Source: Bilabrum cf. latius
Taxonomy: Eukaryota
Direction: 5' to 3'
Assembly: GCA_965178125.1 (NCBI GenBank)
Contig: OZ237773.1
Coordinates: 372,001 to 436,000 of the forward strand
Length of the DNA stretch: 64,000 nt
Each line of letters starts with the position of its first letter. Positions within the stretch are counted from its first letter, which is position 1. The position numbers and the translations under genes were made by a program. Shown here piece after piece: positions 635 through 64,000 of this stretch. Under the pieces are notes generated by a model, which saw only the letters and a program-made list of their open reading frames with translations, ran no database searches and was not told the origin of the DNA.

Positions 635-3058
635 TCAAGTAGAGCTCGACCCCGTGCGCCACCCTCCCAAGGCAGCCTGCAATGCGACCACCCTGCAGAC
701 ATCATGGTAGAGGCACATCCCACCCGTGGCATCATACACCACGCAGCACCCGCCGAGGGGAGGCGCTGCGAATCCTCCATGAACCTCTTGGTCTCCAGCC
801 ACCTCCTCACCCTTACCTCCATCTCCAGAAGCTTCACCAGCAGCGGCTGCTCCCGATGCAACTTTACCCTCAACACTAGTAACCCGAAGGTCATCACCAT
901 CGTCACTATCATCACCGTCGACCCCATCTCCCATCCACCCGATCGGTACCGCCCCCTGCAACCCCCTTGGAGCCACGAGTCCGTTGCACCCCTGCTGCCC
1001 GTGGTCAATGCGGAGCAGAGGCACACCGCAGTGCAATGCACCATCCGGGTCCGTGTCACGATACGCACCGAGCACTCCTCGCTGGCCAGCAACCCCCGCC
1101 GCCTGTTCGCCTTTAACTTTAACGCCAACAGGTGAGGCATCTTCGTGTTCTCCACTTTGGGCTGACGCATCGGCACCTCCACCTTGCTCGGTTCCATCCT
1201 TTGCAACAGCACCTCCACCTTGCTCGCTTCCATCCTTTGCACCGGCACCTGGCTCATCTCCCACCTGAACCTCCTCGCCACCTTCAAGCATTTCTTCTTC
1301 TACCGCCGCCTCGACTTCCCCCCTCACCACCAGCTTGCCGTCAATCCCGAGCGTGCACTGCGCCCGCACCACCTCCAACGGACTCTCCCGGCCGAGCGAT
1401 GCAAGGGCTTCCAGCGCCGAAACACCGCCGCCTGTGAGCTTAACTGCGTCGCTGCCTGGTTCGCCGCCTGTACCCTCCTCCGCCTCCTAGTCCTACAACG
1501 CAAGCTCCCCGGCACGTTCGCCCGCACCCACTGCACGCGCAGCAATCGCCCCAAAATCCACTGGGCCCAGGTACACCGCCCCGCAGCATGCTCCTGGGTG
1601 CCCCCCCGCGAGGCGACGGAGGGGCTCAACGGATACTTCCGGGCAGTAGGCCCCCACCTCCTCCTCTGCCCCCTCGCTTGTGCCCCCGCTGCCCCCTGCG
1701 CCCAGGGACACTGACAGTTCCGCGGCGGTGCCATCGCCGGCAGCCACGAGCACCGTGCACGCCTCCCTGCACTCGTCATCCTCCGCACCCCCTACGAGTG
1801 CCACCGAATGCGGAAGCGGCGGATTCAGCACGCTCGTGCCTGCGCACAGCTCCTCGGCGTGTCCAGTGGCTCGGCCGATGTCTGCACCCCCCAGCTTGCG
1901 AAGAGAACCCCCCGCCGCAGCAACTCGGAGCGGGTACTCGTGCGACGAGTGTTCCGCACCACCGTGCAGTGCAGCTCCCTTCAGACCCCAGCACTCGATC
2001 CTTCCGTCCATCGAGGCGCACACGCAGGCAGGGTGCAGCATTGGAGCACTCGTCATACCGATGTCGCCACCAGAGGCAGGACGGGTCTCTTCTCCCGTGC
2101 ACGCGCCAGAGGCACCAGGGGAGCCCCCGGCTATCCACATGGCCCGCACCCCGCTCACTATGTTTTCGTGTGCTTCGCGGCGACTGGCCACGACTCGGAG
2201 CCACAATCCACCGGTGGGAGCAACGCTACTGCCTTGAGTAGCAGGCGCATCCTGTGCACCGCCGTGCAGTGCAGTCCTACCTATCTCCAACAGAGCCAGC
2301 GAGCCATCGTCCGCTCCAGACCACACCAGCGCCGTGTCCATTAGCGGGAATCGATCCCGGGTAGTGCCCGGTATGGCGACCACGGGAGGCACCTAGCTCA
2401 AAGCGGAGACCTCATCAGAATGAGGAGTGACCGTCTCGGCCGATGCAGAGTCGCTGGCACCTTCTTTTGCGACCAGCTGTGCTGCGGGACACCGCTGCAT
2501 CAGCCGGGGGGCCGGAGTTGCTGCTCCACTGGCGGCACCGTGCTCGCCTTCTTGCAGGGGTACTAGCTCCCACTCTGTGCTGCCACCCGTACCACCATTG
2601 CCCTTGCAATGCACCTTCCATCCTGTTTCAAACAACCGGATGGTGCGACCTTGCCCGACAAGCACGAGGATCTCGAGAGCACATGGCGAGCCGTCTTCGC
2701 CACGGCTTGGGAGCAGCACCAGCTAGACAGCAGCGGGCGCACTGCCAGTCTCTGAATCGCGTGAAGCCGACCCTGCGCTGCTGGTTTCTTTCCTTGCGGG
2801 AGCTTGCCGAACTAGGCAGCAAGACACAACTTTTGCGGTAAGGCTAGCGTCTGGCGTACGGGGCGCGCGTGCGATGTGCCAAACACGCACTGTACCGTCT
2901 TCGGAGGAAGATGCAAGCAGGATCGACGTGCGGGAAACTGCTACGCAATCAGCACTATCGATCGTGGCGCGGTGCCCGGCGATTTCCAACATTCCAACTG
3001 ATGTCCCCTGCATGTGTTTTGCTGGGCACTTTGAACTCGGACAGCCCGAAAAAGTCAA
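635..3058 (-). CDS. WD40-repeat protein (TAG read-through; 5' end unresolved)
   Basis: ORFs 2723-3058, 2393-2719, 1493-2392 and 635-1378 share one frame, are separated only by TAG and end at TGA 635. WD-like motifs: GH...LLASSSEDGTVRVW, VWSGADDGSLALL, CASMDGRIECW. An in-frame TGA just upstream of 3058 suggests an upstream exon or a start at MQGTS (~3013). Confidence 0.65.
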
Positions 3059-3633
3059 GACGAAGCTTTCAAGCCCACTACCCAGGTATCACTGCCTCCA
3101 TATACAAGTACAACATGGAATATGGGGCTATGGATGAACGCAACCCCAGAATATAAAATAAAGCAGGAACACCAGCACGAGGTTGCAACCGGTCCCGCCA
3201 GCCAGGACATGGGCCGGAAGGCTCTTTGCCCCGGGAGAGATCCAGCTGCATACATTCCTGTAGGCGACTGTAACCTTGCAAGCAGTCTTGGTATACTATA
3301 TACTTACTTAGTGCCTGAAGCATAGTGAGCAGCTGAGTACGTGTGCGACTACAGTACCAGTGTAAGCTTATCGAGAATGCATTGGTTCTGTGGTTGATTC
3401 CGGGAAACCTACGATTATTCTTAGCCCAAACACTAGCATACTACATTCCAATGGACTTGAATTGTGTGATACAGCGAAGCCGGACTGTTATCGCATCTCG
3501 TTGTACAGCCATCCCGAATGTTGCAGGATCCTCTTGTGCATATTTGCTCTTTCCACATTACGCACAAAGCAGACACTACGAGTTGGCCTGTCGTGGCGTT
3601 AGACATCAACATTTGTGCGAACACTCAGGCGGA

Positions 3634-12600: not shown

Positions 12601-15600
12601 GCAGGTGCCACCTCGGCTGGAACGTCTGTGTACAGGGTGATGCTGGGTGCAGTCGCTTGCAGCGCGCCAGAGACCGGGACAGCCCATTCCGTTCTTACTG
12701 CTGGCACGGCAGAGCGCGCGGCAGATCTGGCCATGGGCCGTCTGGCGGGCGGGGATTGCCCCCAAGGGCCGCTGCCTGCTGCCGTTGCCCGTCTGCTGGC
12801 CAGCCCAGGGAGCGCACTGGGCCCCGCTGCCGCCAGTCTTGCCGAGGTGCTCGCAGAGGAGGTGCGTCTGGAGAGCGCCGGGGTGGGCGGTAGACAGGAG
12901 AGCGGAGGGTCAGGGGGGGCTAGTGGCGCTGGAGCATCCTCTTCCTCCTCCTCGTCCATGGGAGGAAGCGGGAGTCCTCTGCTGATGGGCGGGACTCGGA
13001 CCAGGGAGAGGCGGAGGAGGCCGCTCTGGTGGCTGCCAGCGCGGTGACGCAATGGTCAGCGAGGGGCGCACTCCCGGCCATCGTGGCAGGGCTGAGACAC
13101 AGCTCCACGCTGAGGCAGGCACTCTTCCGCTTTATGCTCCTGTGGCTGCCCGTGGGTGCGGCCCTGCTCCCTGGGCCGATCCGATGCCGCCAACGAAGTG
13201 ACCGGAGGGTCCTTTTCTCCTCCTCCTTGTCATCCTCCTCCTCGTCGTCGACTCGCGTGCCCGAAGGGTTCTCCCCCCTGCTGGCCCACGCATCGTCAGG
13301 GGCCGCGGCTACGCGGGCGGCACAGACGATCGGAGCAGTGGGTGTGTCCCGGCTCTGTGAGGCATCCTCACCCCTCGTGGCCCCGCCCCCACCCGAGGCT
13401 GCCGTCCTGTCAGGGCTTGCACACGCGAGACATGCATCTGTGGGTCGCGGCGCCACAGGGGGAAGGCAAGCTGCCAGGCAGTCACCTCCCGGCCGTGGAA
13501 GGGATGACAGTGAGACGATCTATAGGATGCTAACGGCTCTGCTGGGCTTCGGTGGCAGGCTGGGAAGCTCTGCGTGGCGGCTGCTGCTGCAGCTGCCCAC
13601 TCGGGAGGAAGCTGTTCGCGCCGTGGTGTCCATGGGAGGGGCCTCGGATGGAACAGCCGACGGCGTGCTGCGCTGGAGCGGGGTACTGGGAGGCGGCGGT
13701 GGTGTGTTCCTCAGGCTGTACCGCATGCTGGTGCTGGACTCGGCCATCCACGGGGCTTGGCCACCTCCCGTGCCTCTGCTGGCGCAAGCGGCGGCAGCAG
13801 GATCTGGCTCGGCAGCTGCGCGGCAGCGCCGATCTGCAGGGGGACAGGGACAGGGACAGGCCGGTCTGCGACCGCCCGCCACCGAGCAAGAGAGTCAGCG
13901 CGCGGTATGGGTGGCTCGATTTGCCAGGTCGGGAGGCGTGGCGCACTGCACCCGAGCCCTTGGGTCAGCTGTTGAGCCACTGAGGTATCGGTTCGCCTCC
14001 GAGCCTGCTGCATCCAGGCTGGCCCTTTGGTCCGAATCTGCCCACCTGTGCCGGTGCCTGCTGACTGCGCTATCCATGGACCCTGCCTTCGTGCCAGTGG
14101 GCTTTGACGGTGTGGGTAGCGCGGCGGTGGGACCAGCGGCCCGTGCTGCGGCTGTGCTCACCTATGGGCTGGATGCAGCCGCGGCAGCGATCGAAGTGAA
14201 GGATGGCAGGCAGGGGCAGGACGCTGCTCCTTGGGGCATGCGGGCCGAATCCATGGCCGGTGGGGCGGGGGCCGCGAGCGGGCTGCTCGGCCTAGGCGGG
14301 GTGGAGGGCGCGGTCAGGGCGCTCACCAGGGGCATGGTGGCTGCCAGGCTGCGAGCCGTGGCGCCCGTGGTGGCCCCTCGCTCCCTGCTGGCTGAGGCAG
14401 GTGACCTGTCTCTAGTGGCACAGCACTCGCTGAGGCTGCTTCTTGCCGCCGCTGCCGAATCTAGGCCAAGCAGCCGTGCGCCTGCCGAGGCAGTAGCCGC
14501 CGCGGGCAGTGCTGCCGCTGTAGCCGCGCATCTGCTCACCGCTTGCTGCCTCAGTGACGGGGCCGCAGCTCGTTGGCTGCTCGGCCGGACGGACCTCGGG
14601 AAAGTGCTGGCAAAGCTGCTTCTAGTGGCCGGCCCCGCCGTGCGACTGCACTCGTCACAGGCACTCCTGCGGCTCTGTAGGAGCGGGCTGCTTTTGTCCG
14701 CCGAGGGCGAGGCAGAGGCAGGTGAGGGCAGCGAGGGTAGGGCCTCTCCAAGTGGAGTCGATGGATCGGGGGCAGGGGCAGGGGCAGGAGCGGGGAGGGG
14801 TGCGCGTACAGCGGCCGAAACCATCCTGAGGCACCTGCTCATGCTGCTGCCGCGGTGCAGAAGCAAGCGCGCGGCTGGAAGGTGCGGGCATTTCTATGCT
14901 CTGCTGTCGGCCGTGTTCGCCCACTGCCTGAGGGGCGGTGGGCCCGATGCCACTGGCCCGCGGCCCGCGTCGGCTGTGGCCCATGGGCTCGCTGCTCATA
15001 TGCGATCCGACGTGGAGGCTGCTGCCGCTCGGGGAACACAGGCCGCCGAGAAGGTGGCCAATGCTGCGGCTGCATAGCGGGGTCAGGTGCTTCGGCAGCA
15101 GATCGCGCGGGCCTGGCAGTCGGCGGCGCGGGGCAGGGCAGAGTCGATGCACCTGGCCCTCGACCCCACCGTGGGGGCAGGCGCAGGGGGTGCCTCCCCG
15201 TGCATGCAGCGCACTCAGACTGACGTCACCGAAGACGATGCCACTGGGATCATGAGCCGCACCTATTCTGATGGTGTGACGAGTGTGGTGGATGGAGCAG
15301 ATAGCGGAGGACTGCCAGGCTCTGACGCAGCCCCTGGACTCACGCCCGCCCAGTGGCGGATGCAGCGGTCACCTTCGCTAGTAGCCATGGGATTCGATCC
15401 CCCGGTCACCCCCTAGAGACCGGGAGCATCGGGAATGCCTAGTGCTCTGGAGCTGACCCCGGTGCTGGGCGTGCCGGGGTCCAGCGTAAGCTAGCAAGGC
15501 ACCCCCAGGCTGGGGGCAGTGGGCGCCGCAGTAGCAGATGCAGCTGGAGGACCTGAGGTGGCCGCTCTGCGGAACCGGCGGGATCTTGACGTGCCGGTGT

Positions 15601-17039
15601 CGGCGGGCGTGTGGTACTGCCGGCTCGCTTTATCTCTCATGGTGATGCGGTCAAACGAGCAGCACGGATCGATGGGGGGCGGGGCGATGAGGAATGCGGC
15701 TGCCAGCGCGGCTGTCTCCAGCGGGCAAGGGAGTGCGGGCGGCGCGGATGAGTTCGAGGACAGTGGAGGTTGCGACCACCGGGTGCGGGGTACACTCGTC
15801 ACACTTCGTGCTCTGCTGCGCAGCGCACCTGCTTTGAAGCAAGCCCCCGTGAACCGCCCACTGATCGCCTTCATTCTGTGCGCTGGCCTGTTCCCGCCCG
15901 CTAGCCCCGGCAACTCGCCTCTGGGAGAGTTGGCTGCGACGGGCAGCTTGGCTGCCAATAGGCGGCGCGCCACACAGGTTGGTGCTTTATTCAAGAGCGC
16001 AGGCACCCGGCGGGTGGCATACGGTCTGCTGCTGGACCTGGTGCGTGTGGAGGTGGAAGAGGGGGACGATTCTGGGGTGCTGGAGGCGGGGCAGGAGGTG
16101 GAAGAATCAGCCGGTTAGGGAGAGGGCGAGGGTGAGAGCAAGTTGGAAGAAGGGGCTGAACCCGTCACAGAGGCGGGAACAGGTGCGACCGTGGAGCCTG
16201 AGGCAGAGGCAGAGGCAGATGAAGAAGCGGATGATCCACCACTCGTGGTCAAGCCCGCCAGCGCCGTGTCCCTGTCTCCCTCCGCCCTTGCCCTGCGCAT
16301 GGCACTCACGCCCAGCAAACCCCCCAGGTTCCAAGACGGCGCCCTGGCCCTGCGGTATGCCGATGAGGGGCTCCCGCCCATCCGAGGCACAGACAGGGCG
16401 CGACTCGTCCTAGTGGCAGAGACCGTTTGCAGGGAGTGCGGGGCCTATGGGGGAGAGGACTGGGTCAAGGATGGTCGCAAACTAGCAGTTGAGCTGGGGT
16501 TGTTGTCGGCAGATGACACGCAGGGACAGGGTGTCAGGAGCGGGGCTGGTTCTGCAAACAGTGAGGGGAAGGGCACTGTGGCCCGCGTGCGGCAGGAATG
16601 GCCGCTATTCCGTCGCTGGACATATGCACCACGCCTGCTGCTGCTTCCCTCTGCAGTGCCCTACATTGGCCTCAAGAACCAGTCGTGCACGTGCTACATG
16701 AACGCCCTGCTGCAGCTGCTCTTCCTCATCCCTCGGTTCAGGCAGGCAGTGCTGCACGCGCTGCCTGAGGGAAGGAAGGACGGTGACGTGGTTAAGAGAG
16801 AGGGCGAAGACAGCAGCGTGGGCGTGCTGCGAGAGCTCCGGCGACTCTACGGGCAGCTGGCGCTGAGCCCCCGCAGGTGGGTGGACACCATCGATTTCTG
16901 CCGCGCGTTCCCCGGAGACGGCGGTGCCCCTCTGAACCTGAGAGAGCAGAAGGACGCGCAGGAATTCGGACAGAAGCTCTTCGAGCTGCTAGAGAAAGCA
17001 GACGTGCCATCAGAGCCTGGGCATTCTGTTGTTGGCAGC

Positions 17040-17080
<41 letters not shown>

Positions 17081-20000
17081 GAAGAAAGGCTGGTTAAAGA
17101 GGCACCTGCAGCGGACAATCGGTGGCAGTGTGGTGAACCAGATCATTAGCAAAGGGGGCAAGCCCTTCGTGAGCGAGCGGGAGGAGGAATTCAACATGCT
17201 TTCCGTTGGTCTCACGGAGAAGGAATCGCTGCAGGACAGCCTAAGGGCGCTGATCTAGCCCGATCTGCTGTCTGGTGACAACCAGTACCAGCTACCAGAT
17301 GGCTCCAAGACAGATGCCACCAAGCGACAGCTAGTTCGCCGGCTGCCCCCGCACCTGATCATGCACCTCAAGCGGCTCGAGTTCGACCTGACTGCCCTGC
17401 GCAAGGTCAAGAGCAACAAGCGGCTGGCTTTTCCTGACGTCATCGATATGCGACCCTTCTGTGACGTTGGCCCAGGCGGAGACGACGCGAGACAGGCCAA
17501 GCGTGCCATGGAAGAGGCAGAAGCGGAGGCAGAAGCAGAGGCAGAAGCATAGGCCGATGCTGGGGAAGCGTTGCACAAACAAGCGGGTCCCGCCTCGGGA
17601 GCTGGGGCCAGTAGTGACGTGGATGCCCAACCATCTGAAGAACCGCCCGCACCCGTTTCAGAGCCCTCCGACGAACCGGTGCCGCGCCAGGAAAATGCCC
17701 AAGGCAAGCGGACGGGCAAGGGCAAGAGGAAACCGAAAGCCAAAGCCAAGCCTTCCTGGTACTACCGCTACCGTCTGCAGGGGGTGCTGGTGCACATGGG
17801 CACGGCGGACAGCGGACACTACTACTATTTTGCGAGGGAGAGGATCGCAGACGCTGGCATCGCGCAGCCGCAGCAGGCAGCCGGGCACAGGTCCAGCGAT
17901 GCGGCTAGCACGGTCACCGGCGGGCAGGCTGTGCATCCCGACGACCACTCATCACAGCAAGCTCTGGACGACGTGCCTGCCTCCGCGGCCCAGTGGTGGG
18001 AGCTCAATGACAGGGCGGTGCGTCCCTTTGACACGGACCGCATGGCCGACACATGGTTCGGAGGCGACTACGAGGCCGACTCTGGAGCGGGCAAACGCAA
18101 GTTTACTCGCCACCTGAACGCCTACATGCTGGTGTACGACCGTATGGTGCCTCCCGGCGAGAGCTGGGAGGACGCGGAGGAGGTGGAGGAGAAAGAAGAA
18201 GAGCACGAGAAAGAGGGTGGAGCTGATCGTGAGCACTCCGCAGCTGCTCGGGCTCTCGGAGTAGCGACTGGAATCCTGTCACCTGGCGGCGGGAGCGGCA
18301 ATCGCAAGGATAGGGACAGGGACAGACCGATCGACGAGGCTTCGCCCCCTGCTGCTAGGCTGTCTGCGAGTTTTGCAGCGGCCGTGCAGGTCGCCACAGT
18401 CGGAAGGCGTGCCCGTCGGATGGCCGGCAGCACGCGAACCAAGCTGCCGGGTGGGCTGCCGCTGACAGTGCCACCGGACATTCGGAAGCACGTGTGGCTG
18501 CAGCAGAGAGAGCTTCTGACGTCCCTCTTCGTGTACAGCAGGGAACACGCTGCATTCAGCTGGGGGTTGGCAACTGAGGTGCTGCGGGAGATCACCCGGG
18601 GCAGGAACAGGACGGGCGACTCCAGCGGGGGAGGGCGAGCCGATCTGCTGCCTCCCTGCAGCATCGGCGGACCATCGCACCTGCAGCTCGCCCGGGCTGG
18701 GACGCACGACCTGGCCATTGACCTTGTGCGATTCGTCTGGAGGTATGCCGCGGAGGTGGTGCTGCGCTCGCCTCGGCTCAGGAGGACGGGAGCCGCGCCC
18801 TGGCGCGCCGCCATCGGCGCCATTTGCGACGCATCCCCTCCAGCAGCGGCCTGGCTCGTGGGCGCGCTGGGCCGGCCCCCCTCCTACCAGTACACCCTGT
18901 CCCATCTTGTTCCCCGAGTGGACCTCTCCCCTGATGGGACCCCCATCGTGGGGGCAGACCCCTCCGTGGAAATGGGGGCAACAACCCGCCCTGTGCTCGT
19001 GCCCGAGCCGCCTGCCACTGCGGGGGCATTAGTCCGAAGCGCAAGGGCGGCCGGGGTATCTGCTGCTGCAGCAGGTGCACTGCATGGATGTGAGAACAAT
19101 GGGACGAGTGCGGCAACTATCGAGGTGTCGCAGCAGCTTGCATCGGAGCCGGCGGCCGAGGGCAAAGAGACGGAGATCGATGAGGAGGGTGGTACCGATG
19201 GAGATGGGCTGGAGGCGAAGATGGCAGAAGAAGCAGCAGCGAAAGCCAAGCAGGACGCCGAGGACGCCGAGATGGCCCGGGTGATGGGCATGACTGTGGA
19301 GGAGCTGAGGCGACAGCGGATCGTGGAGCAGGCGTTCTAGAAGGGCGGCGAGCAGGCGGCAGCAGACGCGCGGAAGGCCTTCAACGAGGCGGCGGCCAAG
19401 GACAAGAGCGACCAGGCGGCTGCCATGAAAGGGAGCCGGGAGGGCAGCAGTGCCCGCGGTGCGGGCGAGGCAATCGGGGCGGGTGCTCCTCGCGGACGCC
19501 AGTCCCTGCCCCTGCTTGCCGTGGGATTCGGCGGGTTTGTGGCTCCCAGGTGGGGGGGTCTAGAGTCTGCGGCTAGGGTGGCCATGGGGGCCGGGCAGGG
19601 GAACAAGGGCAAGGGCAAGGGGTCCTCCCCGCGGGATGCCGCATGGGATGAGGTGCAGCTGCTGATTCCCCAGCGGCCAGGCACCCTACTCGGCGAGCTG
19701 GCCGTGGCGTGCCCCGACCTAGGGATCCGGGCATGGGCGGCCGCTGTGGCGCTGCGGGCGTCGAGGGCGGCAGAGGTTGGGGCTGCGTTGGTGGAGTCGC
19801 AAGGGGTGGGTCCTTTGCTGCAGGGCGTGACGAGTGAGGACGATTCCGTGACGGATCTCGAGTCGGGCGCGAGCCCGCAGCTCAAGGCGGCACTGTCCAT
19901 GGCTCGGCAGGCCAGCACGGCAGGCTGCGGTCCTCTGCTTCTTCGGCGCGGGGCCGCATCTGAGCTGCTGGTGCTGGTGGCGCTAGATGCGGCCAACCGA

Positions 20001-21314
20001 CTGACGAGTGCGGGTGCCGACGTGTACCGCGCCGAGGTTGTGCTTGAAGTGGCTCGCGGGGCGGTGCAGTCCGGGGAAGCGGTACGGCGGCGTCTTCTGC
20101 TGGGCGCGAGGGGCGCGGCGGCGCAAGACCGTGTCGGGATGGGCCTGGGCGTGTCCCGGTAGGCGGACGAGGGGCGTGCCCAAGAGGAGGCAGAGGCGCT
20201 GAGGGATGCGCTGGCGCCCGTGGTGGGCGACGATCTTCAGGTGAACGCAGCGGATGGGATCTGCGAGGCTGTCGTGGCTCTGTGCGGCACTAGCAGCGAC
20301 GGGGTGACGACTCACGCGGCGCACCAGAGGGCCGTGGTGCTGCAGGAAGTGAACGGATACATGGCAGCCCTGAGCGCCAAGCGAGCGGCCTCCCTTGCCG
20401 CTGCTGGGGAGGGAGGGGACACGACAGGGGGAGGGGGCGTGGTGCAGGCCCTGGAAGCCAGCGAAGGCAGCCTGCGATGGCTGCCGTTTGGCGTGGCGGC
20501 CTACGCGGGCGAGGGAACAAGGATGTTCAGCCAGGTGGTGGCTCCCAGGGAGGAGGATGGGCCGGGGGCGAGGGGTGGGATGGGGCATGCAGTGCCTCCT
20601 GAGATGCACCCGCTGGTTGACGCCCTGCAGGTGCTGGCCAGGTCGGTGGGATCCAGGCAGGCGGTGAGGCAGTTGAGAGCAGCTGCTACTTCCGGCGGTG
20701 CCAGTGGCAGTGCACCTGCGGGATAGCCTCTGCTGCTGCGCGAGTCGTCATCCCCCGAGCGGCTCGGAGCGAGCCGCCTGCTCGTCCCCAGGGAGATCTC
20801 GAGTAAGCTGGTGGATCCAGCGGTGGTGAATCGGTGGAGAAGCCTGAACGCCTCGGGCATGATCACTGCACTGCGGCACATCTCAAGAGACGACCAGGGC
20901 AGGACCGTGGAGCTAATGCAGGAGGCCGCCCGATCACTCAACTCTGCGCTGACGGCCTCTCGGCTGGACCACTACAGGGCCAACGCGGCCATGCGGGCCA
21001 TCGACATGCTGGCCGAGCTGTGCTCCGTGAACGACGGGATCGGTGCTCGGCGGCTGACCGACCCTGCCATGCTGGACGGGTGTGTCCCCTCGGTGGCCTC
21101 TCCCATGAACCTCCTCATCCTCAGCGGGAACTACGTCATGGAGAGCGGGCCGGCCAAGTCCACGCACGCGGTCTATCCCAGGATGGTGCTGGTGGCGCTG
21201 ACGAGAGCCTTGGCCACGATCGCAGCCAGGTGTCCGGATGAGAGGAGGCAGGTGACGATGACGGACCAGAACAGGCTGGCGTGGATCGAATGGGCCAGGT
21301 CCTACATGGCGTGA
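3634..21314 (+). CDS. Giant ubiquitin carboxyl-terminal hydrolase (peptidase C19, USP9X/24/34-like), ~5900 aa
   Basis: ATG 3634 to TGA 21312-21314, with 17 in-frame TAGs (3904, 3922, 3973, 5776, 5860, 8464, 8692, 9232, 15075, 15414, 15492, 16116, 17256, 17550, 19338, 20160, 20724) and one frame change near 12970. Motifs: Cys box GLKNQSCTCYMNALLQ, QKDAQEF, LHLKRLEFD-like MHLKRLEFD, His box GVLVHMGTADSGHYY, WWELND, NAYMLVY. Possible ubiquitin-like segment at ~11700-11870. Confidence 0.88.
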
Positions 21315-21441: not shown

Positions 21442-22458
21442 TCAGCCTGTCCGTGGCTTGTGCCCGATAAACACATACAGCTGCTGCTCACCGAGCACTG
21501 CCTCATCGAGCGTCTGCTCGCCGTCGGCAATCTTTGGGATGTCGCTAGCTGAGCTTGCCTCGTGATCCCCAGTCGAAAGTTCGCCGCCGCGGCTGCTTGC
21601 ACGCTTCCTGCCCTTGCCTCTCCATCTATCCATGTTTCCATTGCCCTGCTTGCGCAGTCCTTTGCTCGCTGGCTGCTCAGGAGAGAGCACGCTCTCACCG
21701 TTCTTGATCGTTGACTTGCGGAGTGTGATGCGAGAGAATCCAGCGGCCCGCATTGCCTCAAGCACCTGCTCTTGATCGGTGTTGCGAAAAAGATCGGGCG
21801 AATCTTTGTGAAGGCTTGCCAGGTGCTCCGGCTGGGCCATCTCAAAGACGTGGCGGCCACCCTTGCGCAGCACTCTGAACACGTCTTGCATGCCCAGGTC
21901 AAGGTTCTTCCAAAAATACACGCAGTTCGTGTGAATCACAAGATCTGCAGATTCATCCGCGAGCGGAAGCTGCTGCGGTGCATCCTCGCCAACGCCTCCG
22001 TCCAAGACTGAAACTGAAGCTCTTCCCACCATGCGGGCGCGGGCCGCATCCACACTCGACTTCGCCGGGTCTACCCCAAAGACTCTATAACTTATTTCCG
22101 AGCCGTGGATCTCGTTTAGCGCTCTGTCCAGCTCATCGAGCATGAGGCCGTTCGCACAACCCAGCTCAACAATAGACGTGTCCTTCTCGGAGAGATTGGC
22201 GCTCTTGAGCGCCATTTGCCGCGGCCTGACATTAATATTCTGCATAAATGAGAAGATAGTACTCGCTAAGAAACCCTCCGGGTGGCTGAGCTATCGGTGA
22301 AACGTCCGCTTACAGCAAGACCCCAAGATTTTGCGAAGCATCTGCACTCCGCTTGACCGTACTACAGCTGCAACAGCCCCGCAAGCCACAATTGTGCACG
22401 CTAGGGTCACTGCTACAGCTGGCGTCACAGCAAAACCGGCAATGCTCAACGAGGACAT
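21442..22458 (-). CDS. Class I SAM-dependent methyltransferase with N-terminal hydrophobic anchor
   Basis: Motif I IVELGCANG, motif GVDP, LPLADESADLV, VYFW and RVLRKGG. The N-terminus reads through TAG 22291 to give R(Q)LSHPEG, resembling the QL..P.G motif of this family. Ends at TGA 21442. Confidence 0.85.
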
Positions 22459-24875: not shown

Positions 24876-25384
24876 CCTGCAAGAGTGGGTACGGGTCAAG
24901 TATAATTTCTTAATCAATTTAATGCGGACATACAATTTCAAACGCTTGGGTGCGCTAAAGACAGCATGACTGGCTAAGTGCACCGCCGCGACGCGCACCT
25001 GATGGGCACCGAAGCTCATCCCGGAACGGCATACATGGTCCTCATTATTTAAAACTACCGCCCACATTCCAGTGTTTCGTTCATACACTATATATTCATA
25101 CAGTCAAGCCGCCCTAATACACAGGAGAAGCACGTATCTTGCGGCCTGTACGTAGATCCATTTCTTGGCAGCACGATTCGACTGCACATCAGCGTCAGGC
25201 CTTATCAATCACTCAAACACAAAATCCACGCAGTATTCCAGGTCCATTCCATGCACAGCGATATACTCTCACCGATTCGGCTGCCAATGGCCGTCGGACA
25301 AGCAGTGGTGAGAACCATCGCCAGCAAGTGCGAACAGTTGATGTCCCGTGACGAGTGCTCACCAACGGCATCCAACATGGCAGC

Positions 25385-25743: not shown

Positions 25744-25920
25744 CATCACACGGCCCTCGATCCATCACACGGCCCTCGATCCATCACACGGCCCTCGATC
25801 CATCACACGGCCCTCGATCCATCACACGGCCCTCGATCCATCACACGGCCCTCGATCCATCACACGGCCCCAGTCCCCATCACACGGCCCTCGATCCATC
25901 ACACGGCCCCAGTCCCCATC
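25744..25920. repeat. 19/20-bp minisatellite (~9 units) overlapping the stop of the FabI-like gene
   Basis: CATCACACGGCCCTCGATC x7 plus two CATCACACGGCCCCAGTCCC variants; no spacers. Confidence 0.92.
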
Positions 25921-27110: not shown

Positions 27111-27247
27111 AATTTTCGAAATTGGTCTTCAGTAATGAGTGCAATACGGATAGCAGTGGAGTATGCCGTGATGCTCCGAATCTATCATGATGGCAACTCA
27201 ATTTGCGGCGACATTCATACCACCATTTCGAAGATTCCCACGCTATC

Positions 27248-37673: not shown

Positions 37674-37826
37674 CGTTCTCGAGCTTGATGTGCAACCACC
37701 CGCAGTTGCAGCGGGACCGGTCACATGAAATGCGCGGCGCAGCGAAAGCGCTCTGTGCCCAACGATGCCAGAATAAACGATAGTGTCCATGATTCCAGCG
37801 CAAAAAATGCCCCAGTATAATCACCA

Positions 37827-40217: not shown

Positions 40218-40454
40218 CAGGCCGCGGGCGATCCCTGTATGCCAGCAGGCAATTGGGAAAGGCCAACGAACCAATGGAACCTCTTGAAGCATCGGTGCGA
40301 ACGTTCATCATCCCCGGGTGGCTTGACCTTTGCAGGGCATCAAAACTGTAGAGATTTTGGCAGCACAAGTATAGTGGGCACAGTATCTGAAACAGCGACT
40401 TATCCCTCGTAGCAGTGGGCTTGCGAGGACAGGCCACGCCACACGCACATCCGA

Positions 40455-41805: not shown

Positions 41806-41838
<33 letters not shown>

Positions 41839-46674: not shown

Positions 46675-46717
<43 letters not shown>

Positions 46718-52235: not shown

Positions 52236-53418
52236 TCACACCGCCCCTGCTCCCTGGAACTCCTCGCTGTCGTTCGCGAACGCGCCGTCAGCCACGGGGG
52301 CAGCCCCCGTTTCTCTCAAAGCGCTCTCTGGCAGTGCCCCCTTCCCCGCCCGCTACCTGCTCCCAGACCCGCTCGCACTCATCACACCGCCCCCCTTGGA
52401 ACCGTCCCCCGCCACGGCTTGCTCGAAGGCAGCGCCCTCCCAGTCGGTATCCCCGCCCTGCCCCTGCGCCTGCCCCTGCCCCTGCCCCTCACCCCTCCCC
52501 TGCGCAGCACCGCTGCCATTCTGGCTCCGAGTCGATCCCTCCCGCTCCCCAGCTGGCAGTGCGCTTCCGAATCGCGCCGAAGCCGCCCCTGCCCCAGGCC
52601 GGCCTCCCCCGGACACGAACCCCGCCCGCCTGGCGATCTCTGCCCTGCGGAGGACCTCGTTCAGGTACCCCGCGGCCCCACCCACCAGCAGCCCCACCGG
52701 ATAGCAGAAATAAAGCTCGTCCTCCCACAGTATCCTCCGCATGGCCGCCCCCCTGTAGTCCTCGATGTCCACCACCCCGAACACGAAGCCGAAGAGGAAG
52801 CCCAGCAGACTGCACGAAAACAGGATCACGTTGATCTGGCTCGCACTGCCGATCAGACCCACGCGGAGCTCCGCGGCTCGGCGGCGGTCGTCACCGGACG
52901 ATGACGACGCGAGCTACTCGGCATGTGGGTCTCGTCTGGCGCACATGACGCCACCAATGTCCGTGACAGAGAAGGCGAACGCGAAGCAGATGGACGTCCC
53001 AAGTGTCGCGTACATGGGGACTTTCACCACGGGGCTCAGCTGGAACAGGTTCTCGTCGAGGAGGAAGCACACTAGGCCTGAAACGACGACGAGGCCAGAA
53101 AACGCGTAGAGCTGGACAAAACTTCGGCCCTCGTGCTGCCGGGTGAGCATCTGGACTCGGAGGGCAAGCAACCCACCAATGAGGGCAAGCAATATACCAA
53201 AGTCTGCGATTGTGTGAATGGGTGTACTAAATTCTTCTATAGCAAGCGCACAGATACGAAAATGGAGACATGATTGCAATAAACTCACAGAATGAAAAGA
53301 AGTTGGACACGGAAATCTCGAGCAGCGTTGAGTTCGCAATCCAAGACACTCCCATGCCCAGGAGGCCCCCAATCACTATTGAGACAAAATGTCTGCATTC
53401 GCACGCACTACCCGACAT
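52236..53418 (-). CDS. Multi-pass membrane protein of unknown function; 2 exons
   Basis: ATG 53418, intron 53204-53288, about 6 hydrophobic segments (LLEIS, PMYATLGTSICFA, FGFVFGVVDIED). TAGs at 52914 and 52353; TGA at 52236. Confidence 0.75.
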
Positions 53419-54139
53419 GAAAACTAAGTTGTACGCGTCTGATTGGGCCCGAAGTGAGGAAGGTCGTGTGATGAGTGACGCTGGCTCTGGGCTCCACTGC
53501 ACACGCACACCCCCTTCCCAGTACACTGCCACCCGGTACGATGACCACAAATATGTGCTGCTTTCTGCGCACCTCTGCGCGTATCTATGGGCACCCCTTG
53601 ATCAAGCTTGCGCACCCGTGCACACGCCCCTTGCTGCACCCGGCTGGCACACAACATTGCCACTGCCAGCCGTGCCCGTCTGCAAGCTTGCCATTGGCCT
53701 TGGCCTCAGGCTGGCCAGTTGCAAGCGGTGGGTCACTGCGGCATGCCCCGCCCAGCATCGTGCGGCATCCACTCCGCAGTCCATCTACTCCTCTACCCGC
53801 ACCCGCCATTGTGCCAACCCAATCCCCGCAGCAAGCCCCCGGGCCGGGCCCAGCGAGCTAGATCTACTCACCGACGGGGCAGGTCGGGAGCGGGGCAAGC
53901 CTCCGCTGGCAGGCGCACTGCCTGGGCCACTGCTAGTGGAGGAGGAAACCATACCATACTGAAGGCAGAGTCTCACTGTATCGGCACAAAGCCGCTGCTA
54001 CGCACCAACTTAGCTCTCACTCGCACGAACGCCCCGTCGATGCGGGTCATTCGCTGCAATTTCTGAAACGATGAAGACAAATACTGGCTCCGCCAAAGTG
54101 CAACACCGCAAGCTCACGACTGGGCCACCGGTCCTCGCA

Positions 54140-56692
54140 ATGGGAGCCGGTGTGATTGTTGTAGTGGTATTACTTATCCTTGCTGCGATAGCGGCTGGGG
54201 TGTACTACTGGATGTATCTTCGGCAGAAGCGCCAGGAAGACAAAGTGCTCAACCGCGTCGGCGAGGATCCGTTCGCTCCCGGGGCGGGAGGGCCCGGCAC
54301 GGTATGGGGAGGCGGAGCAGGAGATTATGTTCTTATTGAGGACGGTGCGATTGAGTCAAGAGGGGGCGACGGCTCGCATGCTTCCGGCCAAAATCGCGGA
54401 TCGGCTGCCGAACGCCGCACGAGGGAAGAAGCCCAGCTCGTGGCCGCTGCGCTCGACCCTGCGGTAATGGAACTGCGTCTATACAAAAATGAGGTGCACA
54501 AAATTGATTTATTGTTCCCGAACGGCTGGGCCAAAGAGGAGGCCGAGTCGACGGAAGCGGTGTGCGTCCAGTTCAGCCACGAGCTCGATTTGGGCCAAGG
54601 GAGCACTCCGAAGTACTTGAGGTTCTCTGTCAGCTGGGACGACGTGTCCTTCGTGTCCATGTCCTCGATGAAGTTCGCCACGAACATGGCCGACCGCCTG
54701 CCCCGCATGGTGGCCGGAGCTCGCATCCTGGACGTGTCCCCGTACAGGGGCACCCCCAGCGCGGCTGCCTCCTTCGGGGGAACAGGGACTGTTGGCGGCG
54801 GAGGACCAGGGGAGGGGCTGGGCGGTGGTGGCTAGGACTGGTCGCACGGCGTGACCGTGGGGGGCAGGGGTACCAGCCACAGAGACGCCTACCAGGTGAC
54901 CTACCGGGTGCCGGTGGGGGCCCCGCAGGAGGGGGGAGGGGACGGGAGTGGCGGGAGGGGGAATACCCCTGGGGGTAGCGGGGGTCACGAGGACCCCTCG
55001 ATGGACCTGCAGGTGTGGAACGTGATTTTGCTCAGCGGGGTGGGGCGCAGGGGGCGCAGGTCCGATTCCCACTGGAAGGCATTCACGCTCAGCTTCGGGT
55101 GTCCCGCTTCGGTCGCCCCGGGGGCGATGCCCCTGGCGCAGGCACTGGTGGAGGCATTCACCATCCGGCCAGAGGCTAGGCGCGCACAGGCCCCCGTCCG
55201 GGCACCCCGCGGCATGGGCCGGCACAGGCGGCACAGCAGCAGCGGGGGCTCGGAGACCTCCTTCTCCAGCCTGGGCACGGGTGTGACGAGTGCGGGGGGG
55301 CTCGGGGGGTCGTCCACGGCGACCTCCTCCTCTTCGGATCCCGAGAGCGACAGGGGCTCCGCGGCGGGTGACAGTGTGACGAGTGCGGACACGGGGGGTC
55401 TGGAGGGCGAGGGCGGCGTGTCTGTGCCAACTGGAAGGAGCCACAGGGTGTCCAGCGTGGGCAGCGCGGGCTCGTCTGCCTCGAGGCGGGGCAGGGGCGG
55501 GGGTCGCGGGGGCAGGGGCGGGGGCAGCAGTGGTCGGCGCGGTGGTGGTGTGACGAGTGGTGGTGGCCCCGGGTGGGTGCAGGACGCGCTGCGGGGGAGG
55601 AGCTTCGCCTCCGAGAGCGAGTTCTCGCAGTCCTTCTCGGACAGGGAGGGACTCGGAGTCTCGATGCACTCGTCACACATGGGGTCCCCCGCGGTGCCGC
55701 GTGGCATCGCCGGGCTGTCTGCGGCAAGGGCCAGGGCGGCAGCAGCTGCGGGCAAGGGGGGGGCTCCATCCGGTGGGGGGGGGCTGTCGCCGGGAGGTGA
55801 CGCAGGGGGGGTGGCGGGGATCCAGCTAGGGAGTCCCCTGCCCCCGGGCCTCAGGGGACGGACCCCCGGGGTGGGGACACGGGGGGGGCAATCCAGCGGT
55901 ACCCCTGTCGCGGGCTCCAACGGGGCGGCCAAGCAGGACGGGGGAAGTTTCGGCTCCGGATCCATGGAGCGCATGTACGCCGCGGGGGTGCCTGCCTCTG
56001 CCTCCGCCATCGCCTCGAGCAAGCGGCAGAGGCGGGGGTAGCGCGGTGTGACGAGTGGTGCGCGTCGGAGCCTGGCCTCGGGCGCACCGGCCTCGTCCGC
56101 GACCCCTGATGTGACGAGTGACCTGTCGGAGCGAACCGTCCGCGCCGCCGGCCTCGCCCTCCTTGTTCCCTCCTCCTGGGCCGCGGGCCGCCCCGAGGCG
56201 GTGCAGGCCAGGGGGGGGGGCAGGCCGAGCACGGTGCGGGCCAGCTGGCAGTCGGGTCCGCTGGCTGGGGGAGAAGGTGTGACGAGTGGTGGTGCGGTGC
56301 GCGACTTGTGGGGCGAGGTGAACGTGATGTGTCTGGTACAGGGGGGTGGCGGTGTGACGAGCGAGGGGGGTGTGGTCAAGCAGCTGCGCGCCTTTTTCCA
56401 GTCGCAGATGCAGAAGTCGGGAGCCCAACCTGCCGGCGCCGGCAGCGGCGTTGTTCCCTCGCCGCTGCCCGAGGGCGCAGAGGCGTACCGGCTGGAGAGG
56501 CAAGGTGTGCCTGTGGTGGCGGTGTCGGCGGTGGGCGGTTTCGCCAGGGCAGGCGCGCATGCAGGGGTGGTCGGGTACGTCGTGACGGTCTCGTTCGCGG
56601 CAAAGGATCCGGAGTCGGAAAGCAGCGCAGACCGGTGGGGGTGGGAGCTGTCTCGGCAGGTGCTCGGGTCGCTGCGGGGAAGCGACGAGTGA
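54140..56692 (+). CDS. N-terminally anchored protein of unknown function
   Basis: N-terminal TM, one frame through TAG 54833 and 56039 to TGA 56690. Confidence 0.7.
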
Positions 56693-60922: not shown

Positions 60923-61050
60923 GCCTCCACCGGGTATATAAACTGTATTTTATCATCTGCATGCTCTCGTGCTAGATTCGGAGCATGCACGGCCACAAGA
61001 GTTGAACAGCGCCAGTCATATTTACACACAATCCGCGGAATAACCTCATA

Positions 61051-62694
61051 ATGATACGTTTGTTCTGTGTGTATGCGAGCATTTTGGTTGCTGGCGTGCT
61101 GCTTTCGGTGTCTCCGGTGGTTGCAGTTCGAAGGATCCCGGCGATTGGCAGGGAAAGCGCAGGGAAACGCAAGGAGACGCCTTTCAAGGTCGGCCATGCA
61201 ATTCATGAAAGGTCTGCAAGTAATGCTGGCTACATCCTGCATGCGACGGACTTTGGGGCGGATCCAAATGCAACGACGGACTCGACAAGGCAGCTGCAAG
61301 CCGCGCTGGATGCGCTCGATTCTCGCAGCGTTCCGCAAGAGGCTGGACACATCGGCGCCGCAGGAGCAGCTTTGAGCCTGGATGGTGGGGCGTACCTGGT
61401 CGGCTCCCCGCTGTGGATGCATGCCGCCAACACTCGCCTGTGCTGCGGGATGCTCATCGCCTCTCCCTCGTTCAACGCCAGCGAATTCATGCTGCACGTG
61501 CAAGGCGGTGAGCTGGTCACGATCGAGGACGTATCATTCGACATGAATCACACCGGTGGCGGCCTGGACCTGAACGGCGTGCTCCGCGCGAGCATAGAGC
61601 GCACGTACTTCGTGCACTACTCCACCATCGGCGTCCGGGTGCGCGAGGGACACGAGGTGCACGTGGGGTCTTCTTTCTTCGGGGAGTACTGGTGGACTGA
61701 CCCCGCCCGCACCGCAGGGAACATGACCGGCACCGCGATCGAGATCGATGGGCAAGACCACTGGATCTCGGACGTTACCATATTTGCGGGATATGAGGGC
61801 ATCCGAATGAAGGGAGGTGCCGCCCTGATCGAAGGAGTGCACGCCTACCCGGGGGGCAAGGGGGCAGCTCTTCACCTCGAGGGGTACGGTGCACGCTCGA
61901 TCAGGGCCGTGGGGAACTACTGGGACGGGAGAGGAGTGGTGCTGGAGGCCCCCTTTCAGCACGTAGAGATTGCCTAGTCGCTGTTCCTGCAGGGTACTGG
62001 GGTAGAGGTGCGGGCCACGAAAGGGTCCTTGCAAGGAAGCGCTCGTAGAACGGATCCGAGCCGCGCGCAGGGCGGCGCATTGCCGGACGCCTACGGTCTG
62101 CTGGTGCAGGGTAATCAGTACCAGCTGTGCGGTCACTCCAGCGACGCGCCCGGGCAGCAGCCCAACGTGACTGTTTGGGTCAATGCGAGCAGTGCAGAAG
62201 GTCGGGTGCTCGCGGGGGCGCAGCAGGTCGTTGTCAGAGACAATACCGTGGACGGCAGCTGCTTCCAGCAAGCCGTGACTCGAATGGAACTGAGCGGCGT
62301 GCTGACCCCGAGCGACGCCGTCAACGGGACAGGGGGTTCTCTCCGGACTGTATGGCTGCCCATGTCTGTGGGGGGTGGTCCGCGCCCGGACGGAAGCGGG
62401 CGCAGCACGCGACTGCTGTTGGACGCTGCAGTGGCTCCACCGCGCCCGGTGGCAGCGCAGGCCTGGTTCCAAAGCGCTCAAGTAGGGGCAGGCGGAGAGG
62501 GACTGAGGGGGGAGGGTGCTGCGGCGAATTTCGGCAGCATCGCATGCCTGGGTGCTCGTGCCTCCGCTGGTCCGTATTCGGCTCCCGACGGCGGCATGCG
62601 GGTCATTGTGGAAGGGATTCCTGCTGGGTGTGACTTGGTGGAGGCTGGCAATGTCACCGTCTCGGTCACAGTAACGCAAGAGAGCGCGGCGTGA
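61051..62694 (+). CDS. Secreted pectin-lyase-fold protein, polygalacturonase QRT3-like
   Basis: Signal peptide, ATDFGADPNATTDST, LSLDGGAYLVGSPL, GHEVHV, GTAIEIDGQDHWISDVTIF. TAG at 61975, TGA at 62692. Confidence 0.75.
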
Positions 62695-62897
62695 AGTGTA
62701 GGAGGGCTAGACAGGTGCTGCCAAGTAATTTGCTGAAATCAAGACCTGATCCAGGGTCGGATCTCAGACAACATGATAAGGCAGGCTTGTGTAGCTTGGA
62801 CACCAAATCATGAGGACCAGTCTGATGAGGACTAGCTATCCCGGATTGAAAGTCCACATAAAATTTATTGCACTGAAGCTGAATCGATGTGGTTTCA

Positions 62898-64000
62898 TCA
62901 GCGTGCCCGGCTGCCCGAACGAGACCGAGAGCGCCGCCTCGTTCGACGCGACCTCTCCTAGCTAGTAGCATGTCCACCCACCGATGGGCCACCCTGCTGC
63001 ACCTGGCGCTCAGCGGGCACAGGCGCTTGCGCAGCAGCTGCAGAGCTGCTGGCAGCTCCTGATGCACTCGCCGCTCTAGGGACGTCGCCCCTCGGGGGCG
63101 ATTCCCACCGCTTGCGGGGCGGCGCCTCATCCTCCCCCCCTCGATCGCCCCTGCGCTGCCATCTCGGCTGCTTGTCACCCCCCCTCCAGTCTCGGCCCCT
63201 GTCATCACCATCTCTGCGCCAGTCCCTCCCTCGTTCATCTCCACGCGACCAACGCCCCCGATCCGCTCTGTCTCCGCCCCACCGATCTTGCCCCCGGCCT
63301 CGCCCATCCCCTCCCCACCTGTCCCTTCTTTCCCCACCCCTACCCCCCCGCCGCTCCTCCCCCCTGGGAGCGTCCCCCCCGCCCTCTCCCGCCCCCCGCC
63401 GCCTCACCATGAGCGCCTCCTCCCTAGCAGCCTCGATCTCACGCTGCGAACGGCCCTCCTCCCGCCTGCGCTTCGCCTCCAGCGCGGCCCGTCTCGCCCC
63501 GCCGATCTCCTCCCGCACCTCCTTCGCCTCCAGCGCGGCTCGTCTCGCCGCCTCTAGCTCCCTGTCTTCCTCCTCGCCCGCACCCCTCGCCCCATTCGGA
63601 GACGCACTCCTGCTGCGGCCTCTCCTGCCCTCCCTCTCGATCTAGGCGCGCCCCCGCCTCTTGTCCGCGAACAAGTCATCGCCCTGCCCCTCGCCCTTGC
63701 CCTCACCCTCGGCCTCGGCTCGATCATTCTTACCACCCCGAGCCCCATCCTGGCCGTCGGTCACTATGCCACCTCTCTCGGTCCTACCCCGCTTCTTGGG
63801 AGGTGCGCCATCCTACCCTCGCCACGGCCTGCCTCCGGACCTGCCCTTCGACCTCGACCTCGAACTCGACCTCGACCTAGATCTAGATCTAGACCTAGAC
63901 TCTGACGATGACGGAGACCTGCTTCTGCCCCTTCTTCTGCTACCTCCACCATCCCGTGGTGGACTCCTCCTACGCTTGGAACCTGCCACCGGCCTGCCCC
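62898..64000 (-). CDS. 3' part of an RS/RD-rich protein (splicing-factor-like), partial
   Basis: SRSRSRSRSRSSSRSRSK and RDRWGGD repeats. The frame reads through TAGs (including 63642 and 62958) to TGA 62898. Confidence 0.6.

Follow-up and report, generated by a model that had tools for sequence, protein, structure and literature searches.

The locus raises the question of which of the three standard stop codons its host still reads as stops. By the window we mean the whole 64-kb stretch of DNA that was analysed, which with its approximately 18 genes constitutes the sample. A sequence-only reading had described its host as GC-rich and intron-bearing, and this description agrees with a GC content of 64% and with spliced GT..AG joints in what is nuclear DNA with introns. 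Our answer, which we hold with high confidence, is that in this GC-rich, intron-bearing eukaryote UAG stands for glutamine (Gln, Q), with UGA as the main stop and UAA as a minor one. This combination, UAG as Gln with UAA and UGA as stops, is NCBI table 15. The features of the window are listed in Table 1.

Table 1. Genes and reading frames of the 64-kb window, with their ends and in-frame TAG codons
Feature	Position	Strand	End, support and introns	In-frame TAG
3' end of gene entering from the left	1..321	+	ends TAA 319-321; six-frame reading	
WD40-repeat protein ORF	635..3088	-	stop TGA 635-637; weak Pfam WD40 match, below curated cut-off	4 (first bases 2725, 2395, 1495, 1489)
Giant USP-type gene, N-terminal part, 3236 codons	3337..13044	+	ORF reading	8 (3904, 3922, 3973, 5776, 5860, 8464, 8692, 9232)
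One-base frame break, giant ORF to USP ORF	12981..12990	+	near relative P0125 reads straight through	
USP/UCH deubiquitinase part	13050..21314	+	Pfam UCH E 5.6e-33; stop TGA 21312-21314, then second TGA	9 (15075, 15414, 15492, 16116, 17256, 17550, 19338, 20160, 20724)
Methyltransferase gene	21442..22400	-	stop TGA 21442-21444	22293, upstream of domain
Phosphofructokinase (PFK) gene	22656..25272	-	Pfam PFK E 8e-46; stop TGA 22656-22658; introns 23653-23868, 23953-24060, 24876-25271	3 (23015, 24599, 24725)
FabI-type enoyl-ACP reductase	25899..27128	-	stop TGA 25899-25901	3 (26771, 26756, 26648)
Sulfatase gene, several exons	27418..30480	+	stop TGA 30478-30480; introns 27543-27642, 27777-27871, 27906-28223, 29464-29585	28358
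Cytochrome P450	30756..32519	+	Pfam p450 E 1.2e-36; stop TGA 32517-32519	30771, 30924; third TAG 30753 just 5' of likely ATG
Two-part ORF	32783..34663	-	stop TAA 32783-32785; in-frame TGA 33650-33652 probably within a presumed intron, outside transcript-contig coverage	8 + 1
CBS + PP2C/SpoIIE-type phosphatase	34557..37820	-	stop TGA 34557-34559	5 (37610, 37448, 37343, 35450, 35366)
Membrane + coiled-coil protein	37827..40304	-	stop TGA	5
WNK-like protein kinase, 3269 codons	40455..50264	-	Pfam Pkinase E 4.5e-34; stop TGA 40455-40457	32, many at Q positions of EQ, GQ, PQ and polyQ repeats
Membrane protein ORF	52236..53372	-	stop TGA	2
909-codon ORF, no known family	53963..56692	+	stop TGA	3
Coiled-coil ORF, 1237 codons	56693..60406	+	stop TGA	8 (2 in polyQ run)
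Pectate-lyase-like secreted protein	61006..62694	+	stop TGA; weak Pfam match	61975

Across 13 well-framed ORF segments (16,308 codons, hand-summed), TAG occurs 85 times in frame, and TAA and TGA do not occur at all. In the identical segments the +1 frame holds 97 TAG, 27 TAA and 287 TGA, and the +2 frame 93, 29 and 268, respectively; four segments (MT, PFK_e4, sulf_e and sulf_last), put out of frame by their exon offsets, were left out of the sum. The in-frame absence of TAA and TGA is partly circular, because the ORFs are defined by these two codons. What is not circular is that frames of 3000 codons free of both exist. Under the standard code the longest ORF has 1270 codons. If TAG is treated as sense, fragments join up and the longest ORFs reach 3269, 3236 and 2944 codons; the same treatment of TAA has almost no effect (1270 codons), and that of TGA yields 1432 codons. 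TAG is present in about 15 of the 18 genes, on both strands and up to 32 times per gene; PFK, FabI, UCH, P450, PP2C and the kinase are TAG-bearing genes with Pfam support. These counts bear out the earlier observations that nearly every gene is one frame interrupted by TAG alone, and that no TAA lies in frame within a gene. The 17 TAG codons formerly assigned to the USP gene are recovered as 8 + 9 only when both frames are counted as a single gene; P0125 of the near relative spans the junction. The break between these frames may be an assembly indel or a real frameshift.

Contigs of the runs X5, X6 and X7 display 8 canonical GT..AG or CT..AC joints, which are absent from the DNA run X1. The three runs come from two studies, neither of which produced the DNA run (public runs of 2025, three studies altogether); their RNA type was only guessed by the tool, which flagged X5 as 'probably DNA', and it is because of the spliced joints that we take the contigs as transcripts. 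The introns are ordinary GT..AG introns of 90-400 bases. The spliced contigs (contigs, not raw reads) span 10 coding TAGs, namely 22293, 23015, 24599, 24725, 26648, 26756, 26771, 28358, 30771 and 30924, with 0 differing letters. Record 9 of X5 covers 21000-22343 (methyltransferase), record 11 covers 26315-27125 (FabI), and the P450 transcript contigs cover 30741-32408, each with 0 differences. No splice joint takes out a TAG. Editing or splicing-out of the TAGs, either of which the sequence-only reading had accepted as a refutation, is contradicted by spliced contigs that keep TAG unchanged. The data support the conclusion that UAG is a sense codon within expressed, spliced, conserved genes, as had been claimed.

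Fourteen of 16 gene ends are TGA and 2 are TAA, in a count from which a terminating TAG would escape since the ORFs were read through TAG. None of the 16 ends needs TAG, by a method to which TAG as a terminator is invisible because the ORFs read through it and the mRNA 3' ends are not in the data. For PFK and FabI, the stop of the ORF lies only a few residues away from where homologous proteins end. In the genes of this one window UAA is a stop and not a sense codon, and the same is true of UGA: both are absent in frame and both are seen as terminators, in agreement with the initial reading, whose two TAA sites (319 and 32783) were both matched.

The metagenomic relative L001, aligned by codon to the USP part, has 64.5% identity to the window, and its homologous frame contains 5 TAG, 0 TAA and 0 TGA in 1726 codons. 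Two of its own TAGs face window CAG in a fully conserved context, and one faces window GAG (16833) in a conserved context. This more distant relative shares the use of UAG as a sense codon. A nearer relative (fragments 90-97% identical) is represented by standard-code fragments, which end at window CAG (4), TAG (1), TAC (1) and GAT (1); six such fragments make up the database entries for its giant protein, and its protein P0136 ends exactly at window TAG 35366. P0122, which is 50% identical, has 1257 codons with zero standard stops and may still use the standard code. The best matches of the window are stramenopiles. In a PFK tree (FastTree, 41 rows of 121, comprising all named and the best unnamed ones) the window and P0002 occupy their own long branch outside oomycetes, ochrophytes and a single haptophyte, and the tree therefore names no phylum. 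The best matches of the WNK-like kinase are oomycete WNK kinases; a homologue search returned distant WNK kinases only and no close relatives.

As to the encoded residue, the near relative has Q at all four TAGs that it covers (5860, 8464, 8692 and 9232), at an overall identity of 91% and with Q facing 102 of 112 window CAG/CAA codons. PP2C TAG 35450 falls in a strongly conserved column: of 99 aligned homologues, 80 have Q and 10 have E, the remaining 9 having other residues. The column of PFK TAG 23015 contains Q in 30 of 120 homologues vs a background of 2.7%, next to K (31), E (18) and A (18), and the closest homologue (82% identity) also has Q. The claim that TAGs fall within conserved cores holds for PP2C 35450; USP TAG 17256 and PFK TAG 23015, however, lie inside domains in variable columns, the three FabI TAGs are flanked by conserved blocks, and sulfatase TAG 28358 precedes the stretch that matches Pfam best. 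In PFK, the alignment to a PDB chain extends to either side of residue 228, a TAG position. For 10 TAG pairs in the L001 alignment, maximum likelihood selects Q (lnL -22.1), followed by A (-26.6) and the rest at -30 or lower. Non-Q residues facing window TAGs in L001 are A (4), T (1) and E (1), and P0122 has R (2), E (1) and Q (1) at such positions. In EQ, GQ, PQ and polyQ repeats TAG alternates with CAG; all 6 TAGs of the EQ repeat are at Q positions and 0 at E positions, and USP TAG 17550 occupies an E position within an EA repeat. The near relative, the PP2C column, the L001 likelihood and the CAG-alternating repeats support the earlier assignment, by which UAG stands for Gln. CAA and CAG are used in a ratio of 137/620, and TAG makes up about 11% of Gln codons. 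If TAA were a Gln codon mirroring CAA, approximately 20 in-frame TAA would be expected, and 0 were observed.

Nuclear code changes outside the ciliates are few, and those parting UAG from UAA are fewer. The code with UAR as Gln (table 6) is found in many ciliates, hexamitids, oxymonads, ulvophytes and an aphelid. It turns stop into Gln via an anticodon change of tRNA-Gln, such as the host of the window would also have; UAA is sense there and not in the window, where 0 in-frame TAA in 16,308 codons and two genes ending in TAA rule table 6 out. Ambiguous or all-stops-sense codes (Condylostoma, Blastocrithidia and Amoebophrya type) are rejected by 0 TGA and 0 TAA in frame, and pyrrolysine or programmed UAG readthrough by the spread of TAG over about 15 of the 18 genes, with as many as 32 in one of them, at Gln positions. 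The crAss-like and Lak phages use code 15, with TAG as Gln, a phage-borne suppressor tRNA and a bacterial translation context; TAG is Gln here too, whereas the window is spliced eukaryotic nuclear DNA.

Closest in type is Iotanema spirale (Fornicata), for which the accessible part of Panek et al. 2017 (PMC5304391) gives nuclear UAG as Gln and tRNA-Gln(CUA) as the predicted decoder. Common to Iotanema and the window is that only UAG is reassigned, to Gln, with UAA and UGA as stops; the dominant stop is UAA in Iotanema, according to the same excerpt (PMC5304391), vs UGA (14 of 16 genes) in the window. Furthermore, Iotanema, an anaerobic metamonad, is represented by a transcriptome, whereas the window is GC-rich, carries P450, FabI and sulfatase, and has stramenopile best matches. 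UAG also means Gln in Hartmannula sinica, Trochilia petrani and Protocruzia tuzeti (McGowan et al. 2024, PMC11687900, in the sections available). As far as this source extends (PMC11687900), UAG is a widespread minority Gln codon both in these table-15 ciliates and in the window (18.5-31.8% vs about 11%), and the ciliates prefer UAA as stop (about 90%), whereas the window mostly uses UGA. Unlike them, the window combines 64% GC and giant genes with GT..AG introns of the ordinary kind, 90-400 bases long. UAG and UAA are uncoupled as here, with a different residue, in the rhizarian exLh and TARA phyllopharyngean MAGs (UAG as Leu) and in Scotinosphaera (UAG as Ser, in the available text of PMC11687900); for the window, Leu and Ser are ruled out by the near-relative, conserved-column and likelihood tests.

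Alternative explanations differ in how far the data allow them. That the TAGs are untranslated, whether in pseudogenes, through removal by RNA editing or splicing, or as sequencing errors, would be the default under the standard code; no support for it was found, and we regard it as extremely improbable in view of 0 in-frame TGA or TAA vs roughly 300 per off-frame in 16,308 codons, of TAGs that read identically in the DNA run X1 and in the spliced contigs of X5, X6 and X7, and of two relatives that hold their frames open with TAGs of their own. Sense decoding as another residue (Glu, Ala, Lys, Leu, Tyr), or ambiguously, could explain why an L001 TAG faces GAG at 16833, why Ala in L001 faces window TAGs four times, why USP TAG 17550 falls at the E position of the EA repeat, and why K, E and A accompany Q in the PFK column. 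It appears very unlikely, however, given Q at 4 of 4 positions in a relative of 91% overall identity, Q in 80 of 99 PP2C homologues, a likelihood for Q that exceeds those for A and E by 4.6 and 9.5 lnL units, respectively, and EQ-repeat TAGs at Q in 6 of 6 cases and at E in none. Somewhat less remote, and still improbable, is that UAG is in dual use, or that no dedicated suppressor tRNA exists and near-cognate tRNA-Gln(CUG) does the reading. The window, in which neither a tRNA nor eRF1 lies, is compatible with this, and the terminator analysis is blind to TAG; however, TGA or TAA explains 16 of 16 gene ends, and the PFK and FabI ORFs stop close to where their homologues do. A gene that carries 32 TAGs calls for efficient decoding, and no efficient near-cognate readthrough is known. 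Dual use was not observed in the other UAG-only codes, as far as the accessible parts of PMC5304391 and PMC11687900 cover them.

The type of code, UAG as Gln alone (table 15), is already known, and its GC-rich, UGA-terminating instance was not found in print, that is, in the full-text literature searched, most subscription journals being outside it. The list of UAG-only cases of December 2024, in the portion of PMC11687900 available, names Iotanema, Protocruzia, Hartmannula and Trochilia as having Gln, besides cases with Leu and Ser, and none of those listed is a GC-rich non-ciliate. The change may be real and yet not new, a description for this organism having appeared beyond the literature searched, a possibility that we consider doubtful without dismissing it: DNA and RNA are in public runs of 2025 from three studies, the assemblers probably noticed, and most subscription journals were not covered, whereas neither the full texts searched nor the portion of the December 2024 list (PMC11687900) contains such a case. 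We judge the chances to be about evenly balanced that the window represents an independent, undescribed UAG-to-Gln change in a GC-rich non-ciliate, non-metamonad lineage, the first with UGA as main stop and with at least three distinct members (the window, the 90-97% relative and the roughly 64% metagenomic relative).

Established knowledge suggests a possible mechanism. A tRNA-Gln with anticodon CUA, one base from the CAG-reading CUG, would decode UAG but not UAA, and eRF1 termination at UAG would be lost or outcompeted. No tRNA was found in the window by ARAGORN and Rfam, the latter giving zero matches within it. The eRF1 of the rhizarian exLh is without obvious change, so eRF1 may not be diagnostic (PMC5304391, available part). 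The code is likely to have moved by codon capture, UAG stops being few in a GC-rich genome in which most genes end at UGA; UAG could then have been taken by a tRNA-Gln copy that had mutated, and CAG-to-TAG transitions would afterwards be silent and accumulate.

Since standard-code gene callers cut at every TAG, public databases hold mis-annotated genomes, MAGs and transcriptomes for this clade unless table 15 is used. Use of the standard code by P0122, if true, would bracket the timing of the code change. Every independent case that separates UAG from UAA is a test of hypotheses about genetic-code change; here GC is high and genes usually stop at UGA, a composition opposite to that of the other cases and in keeping with codon capture of a UAG stop that was seldom used.

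Under the standard code, the longest open reading frame (ORF) of the window comprises 1270 codons, and conserved enzymes are fragmented. Reading TAG as sense yields ORFs of 3269, 3236 and 2944 codons; reading TAA as sense leaves the longest ORFs unaltered, and reading TGA as sense gives a maximum of 1432 codons. The coding frame contains 85 TAG, 0 TAA and 0 TGA in 16,308 codons, and the off-frames of the same rows contain 97/27/287 (+1) and 93/29/268 (+2) TAG/TAA/TGA (hand sum over 13 well-framed rows, with four rows out of frame through exon offsets left out). TAG is thus not avoided in frame, while TAA and TGA are absent, and the claim of the sequence-only reading that no TAA interrupts a gene is borne out. 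Glutamine-type codons number 848 (TAG 91, CAG 620, CAA 137); from the CAA/CAG ratio, about 20 in-frame TAA would be expected if TAA encoded Gln, compared with 0 observed.

Several lines of comparison bear on the amino acid. A 12,376-base contig of a near relative supplies six ORF fragments that match the giant protein at 90-97% identity; they carry Q at 4/4 covered TAGs, and at 102/112 Gln codons of the CAG/CAA type. Where these fragments and a phosphatase fragment (P0136) stop, the window has CAG (4), TAG (1), TAC (1) or GAT (1), as would be expected if the near relative's own genes contain in-frame TAGs. At TAG 35450 of the PP2C phosphatase (motif FRSPqQLRGFNFP), the residue in 99 aligned homologues is Q in 80, E in 10 and another one in 9. 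The column of phosphofructokinase (PFK) TAG 23015 is mixed among 120 homologues (K 31, Q 30, E 18, A 18, R 13, V 5, S 5), with a Q background of 2.7%; the closest homologue (82%) has Q. TAGs of the kinase gene occupy Q positions of an EQ (six TAGs), a GQ/GE (five) and a PQ repeat (one), and two TAGs of a coiled-coil gene lie within a polyQ run. CAG becomes TAG by one transition. In the alignment with L001, a metagenome contig of a more distant relative, 10 TAG pairs have the partners A, Q, A, Q, T, Q, E, Q, A and A; using substitution counts from the same alignment, Q is the best assignment (lnL -22.1), followed by A (-26.6) and the rest (-30 or lower). The non-Q cases, namely A, T and E in L001, R (twice) and E in P0122, a relative at 50% identity, and TAG 17550 in an EA repeat, all fall in variable or poorly aligned places. 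The proposed assignment of UAG to Gln is supported by the near relative, the PP2C column, the L001 likelihood and the repeats, and UAG is very probably a sense codon decoded as glutamine.

RNA editing, splicing-out or sequencing error might also account for TAGs within genes. Ten TAGs lie in spliced contigs of X5, X6 and X7, runs from two studies distinct from that of the DNA run X1, and show zero differing letters and zero joints removing them; this is contig-level evidence, the RNA status of the runs being a guess, and the contigs are called transcripts because of their spliced joints. The unchanged TAGs speak against all three explanations and, at this level, agree with the presence of TAG in mRNA. 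PDB homologues of PFK align on either side of its TAG, and three TAGs of FabI are flanked by conserved blocks, all in one frame. Introns in the window are real and canonical: eight GT..AG intervals (CT..AC on the minus strand) of 90-396 bases are spliced across by contigs of three runs and retained in the DNA run. Together with a GC content of 64%, they confirm the description of the DNA as GC-rich and intron-containing.

Fourteen of 16 genes end at TGA and two at TAA, the latter at the two sites named in the sequence-only reading; this count rests on ORFs alone and is blind to any terminating TAG. The ORFs of PFK and FabI end within a few residues of the ends of their homologues. The data show that within genes UAG stands for Gln and that UGA and UAA act as terminators. 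The base after TGA is a T at many gene ends, frequently in the form TGATGA or TGATGG (about 9/14), and the USP gene ends in tandem TGAs with a third close by; this may point to a favoured context for termination or to back-up stops in tandem.

The 17 TAGs ascribed to the USP gene are correct in total (8 + 9), but they fall in two ORFs with a one-base break of frame between them, not in a single one. Protein fragment P0125 of the near relative runs through this site in one continuous frame (...SPLL, then DGRDSD), so the window seems one G short there; the break reflects an indel of the assembly or else a genuine frameshift in a gene of about 6000 codons.

Coordinates of features in the window
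Feature	Position	Strand	Observation
Giant gene, first ORF	3337-13044	+	
Giant gene, USP ORF	13050-21314	+	
One-base offset between these ORFs	near 12981-12990 (within 12975-12995)		
Match to P0122	5482-8862		giant ORF residues 716-1842
TAGs covered by near relative	5860, 8464, 8692, 9232		Q
TAGs in spliced contigs	22293, 23015, 24599, 24725, 26648, 26756, 26771, 28358, 30771, 30924		unchanged
TAA gene end	319-321	+	
TAA gene end	32783-32785	-	
TGA + T ends, examples	21312-21320, 25899-25904, 34554-34559, 37824-37829		
FabI-type enoyl-ACP reductase	25899-27128	-	large insertions; short basic N-terminal extension, not a signal peptide; mitochondrion or plastid as candidate compartments
Skip in sulfatase exon	28535-28708		172 bases, non-canonical ends (GC..GA), in X1, X6 and X7, short side just 21 letters in each; probably a repeat-driven assembly artefact or length variant, not an intron
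Gene in two same-frame, coding-looking parts	32783-34663	-	9 TAGs, TAA end; Pfam search of upstream part: no family
TGA between these parts	33650-33652	-	presumably within a short intron
Giant repeat-rich ORF	40455-50264	-	very long codon repeats resembling microsatellites (EQ, GQ, GA, DQ, PQ, polyS, polyQ); TAG occurs as a variant of CAG
Giant repeat-rich ORF	56693-60406	+	as preceding
Arg/Ser-rich ORF	62898-63998	-	RS-domain-like; 3 in-frame TAG; leaves window at right end

Pfam families on both strands are of eukaryote type (UCH/USP deubiquitinase, methyltransferase, phosphofructokinase, FabI, sulfatase, cytochrome P450, CBS-PP2C phosphatase, WNK-like kinase), and several further proteins are rich in low complexity; searches of the 64-kb window for tRNAs and Rfam families returned zero of either. 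Among named PFK matches, the best (54-62% identity) come from stramenopiles, namely oomycetes, diatoms, Nannochloropsis, Heterosigma and Tribonema, with one haptophyte further down, and the best kinase matches are oomycete WNK kinases. In a quick PFK tree (41 of 121 rows), the window and protein P0002 form a separate long branch outside these groups. The organism differs from ciliates in GC content, introns and gene size, and, in its gene content with P450 and FabI, from Iotanema, an anaerobic fornicate.

According to the portions of PMC11687900 consulted, UAG alone is reassigned to Gln in Iotanema spirale, Protocruzia tuzeti and Hartmannula sinica as well as Trochilia petrani, to Leu in a rhizarian and TARA ciliate MAGs, and to Ser in Scotinosphaera, and UAA is the preferred stop of the UAG = Gln ciliates; a portion of PMC5304391 likewise gives UAA as the stop that remained dominant in Iotanema and the rhizarian. 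In contrast to these cases, as far as the two sources cover them, UGA is the main stop in the window. A full-text literature search, covering few subscription journals and leaving supplements aside, returned no such code in a stramenopile or a GC-rich non-ciliate, so absence from print is likely, not certain. The type of code appears to be already known and the lineage new, and we lean towards the code change being so far undescribed. Mechanistically, a tRNA-Gln(CUA) derived from tRNA-Gln(CUG) would decode UAG and not UAA, for which an argument is made in part of PMC5304391. Competition by eRF1 at UAG would have been lost, and high GC together with UGA-dominated termination may have made UAG stops scarce enough for capture.

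L001 (5182 bases, 63% GC) shows 64.5% identity across 1613 aligned residues. The homologous frame, 1726 codons long, holds 5 TAG, 0 TAA and 0 TGA, its other plus-strand frames hold 28-34 TGA, and in fully conserved stretches two of its TAGs stand opposite window CAG, one adjoining the catalytic Cys box. The use of UAG is a clade trait, common to L001 and the window. P0122, 50% identical to the window, is a predicted protein running for 1257 residues without a standard stop opposite 4 window TAGs. It may come from a standard-code lineage, a candidate outgroup by which the code change could be dated.
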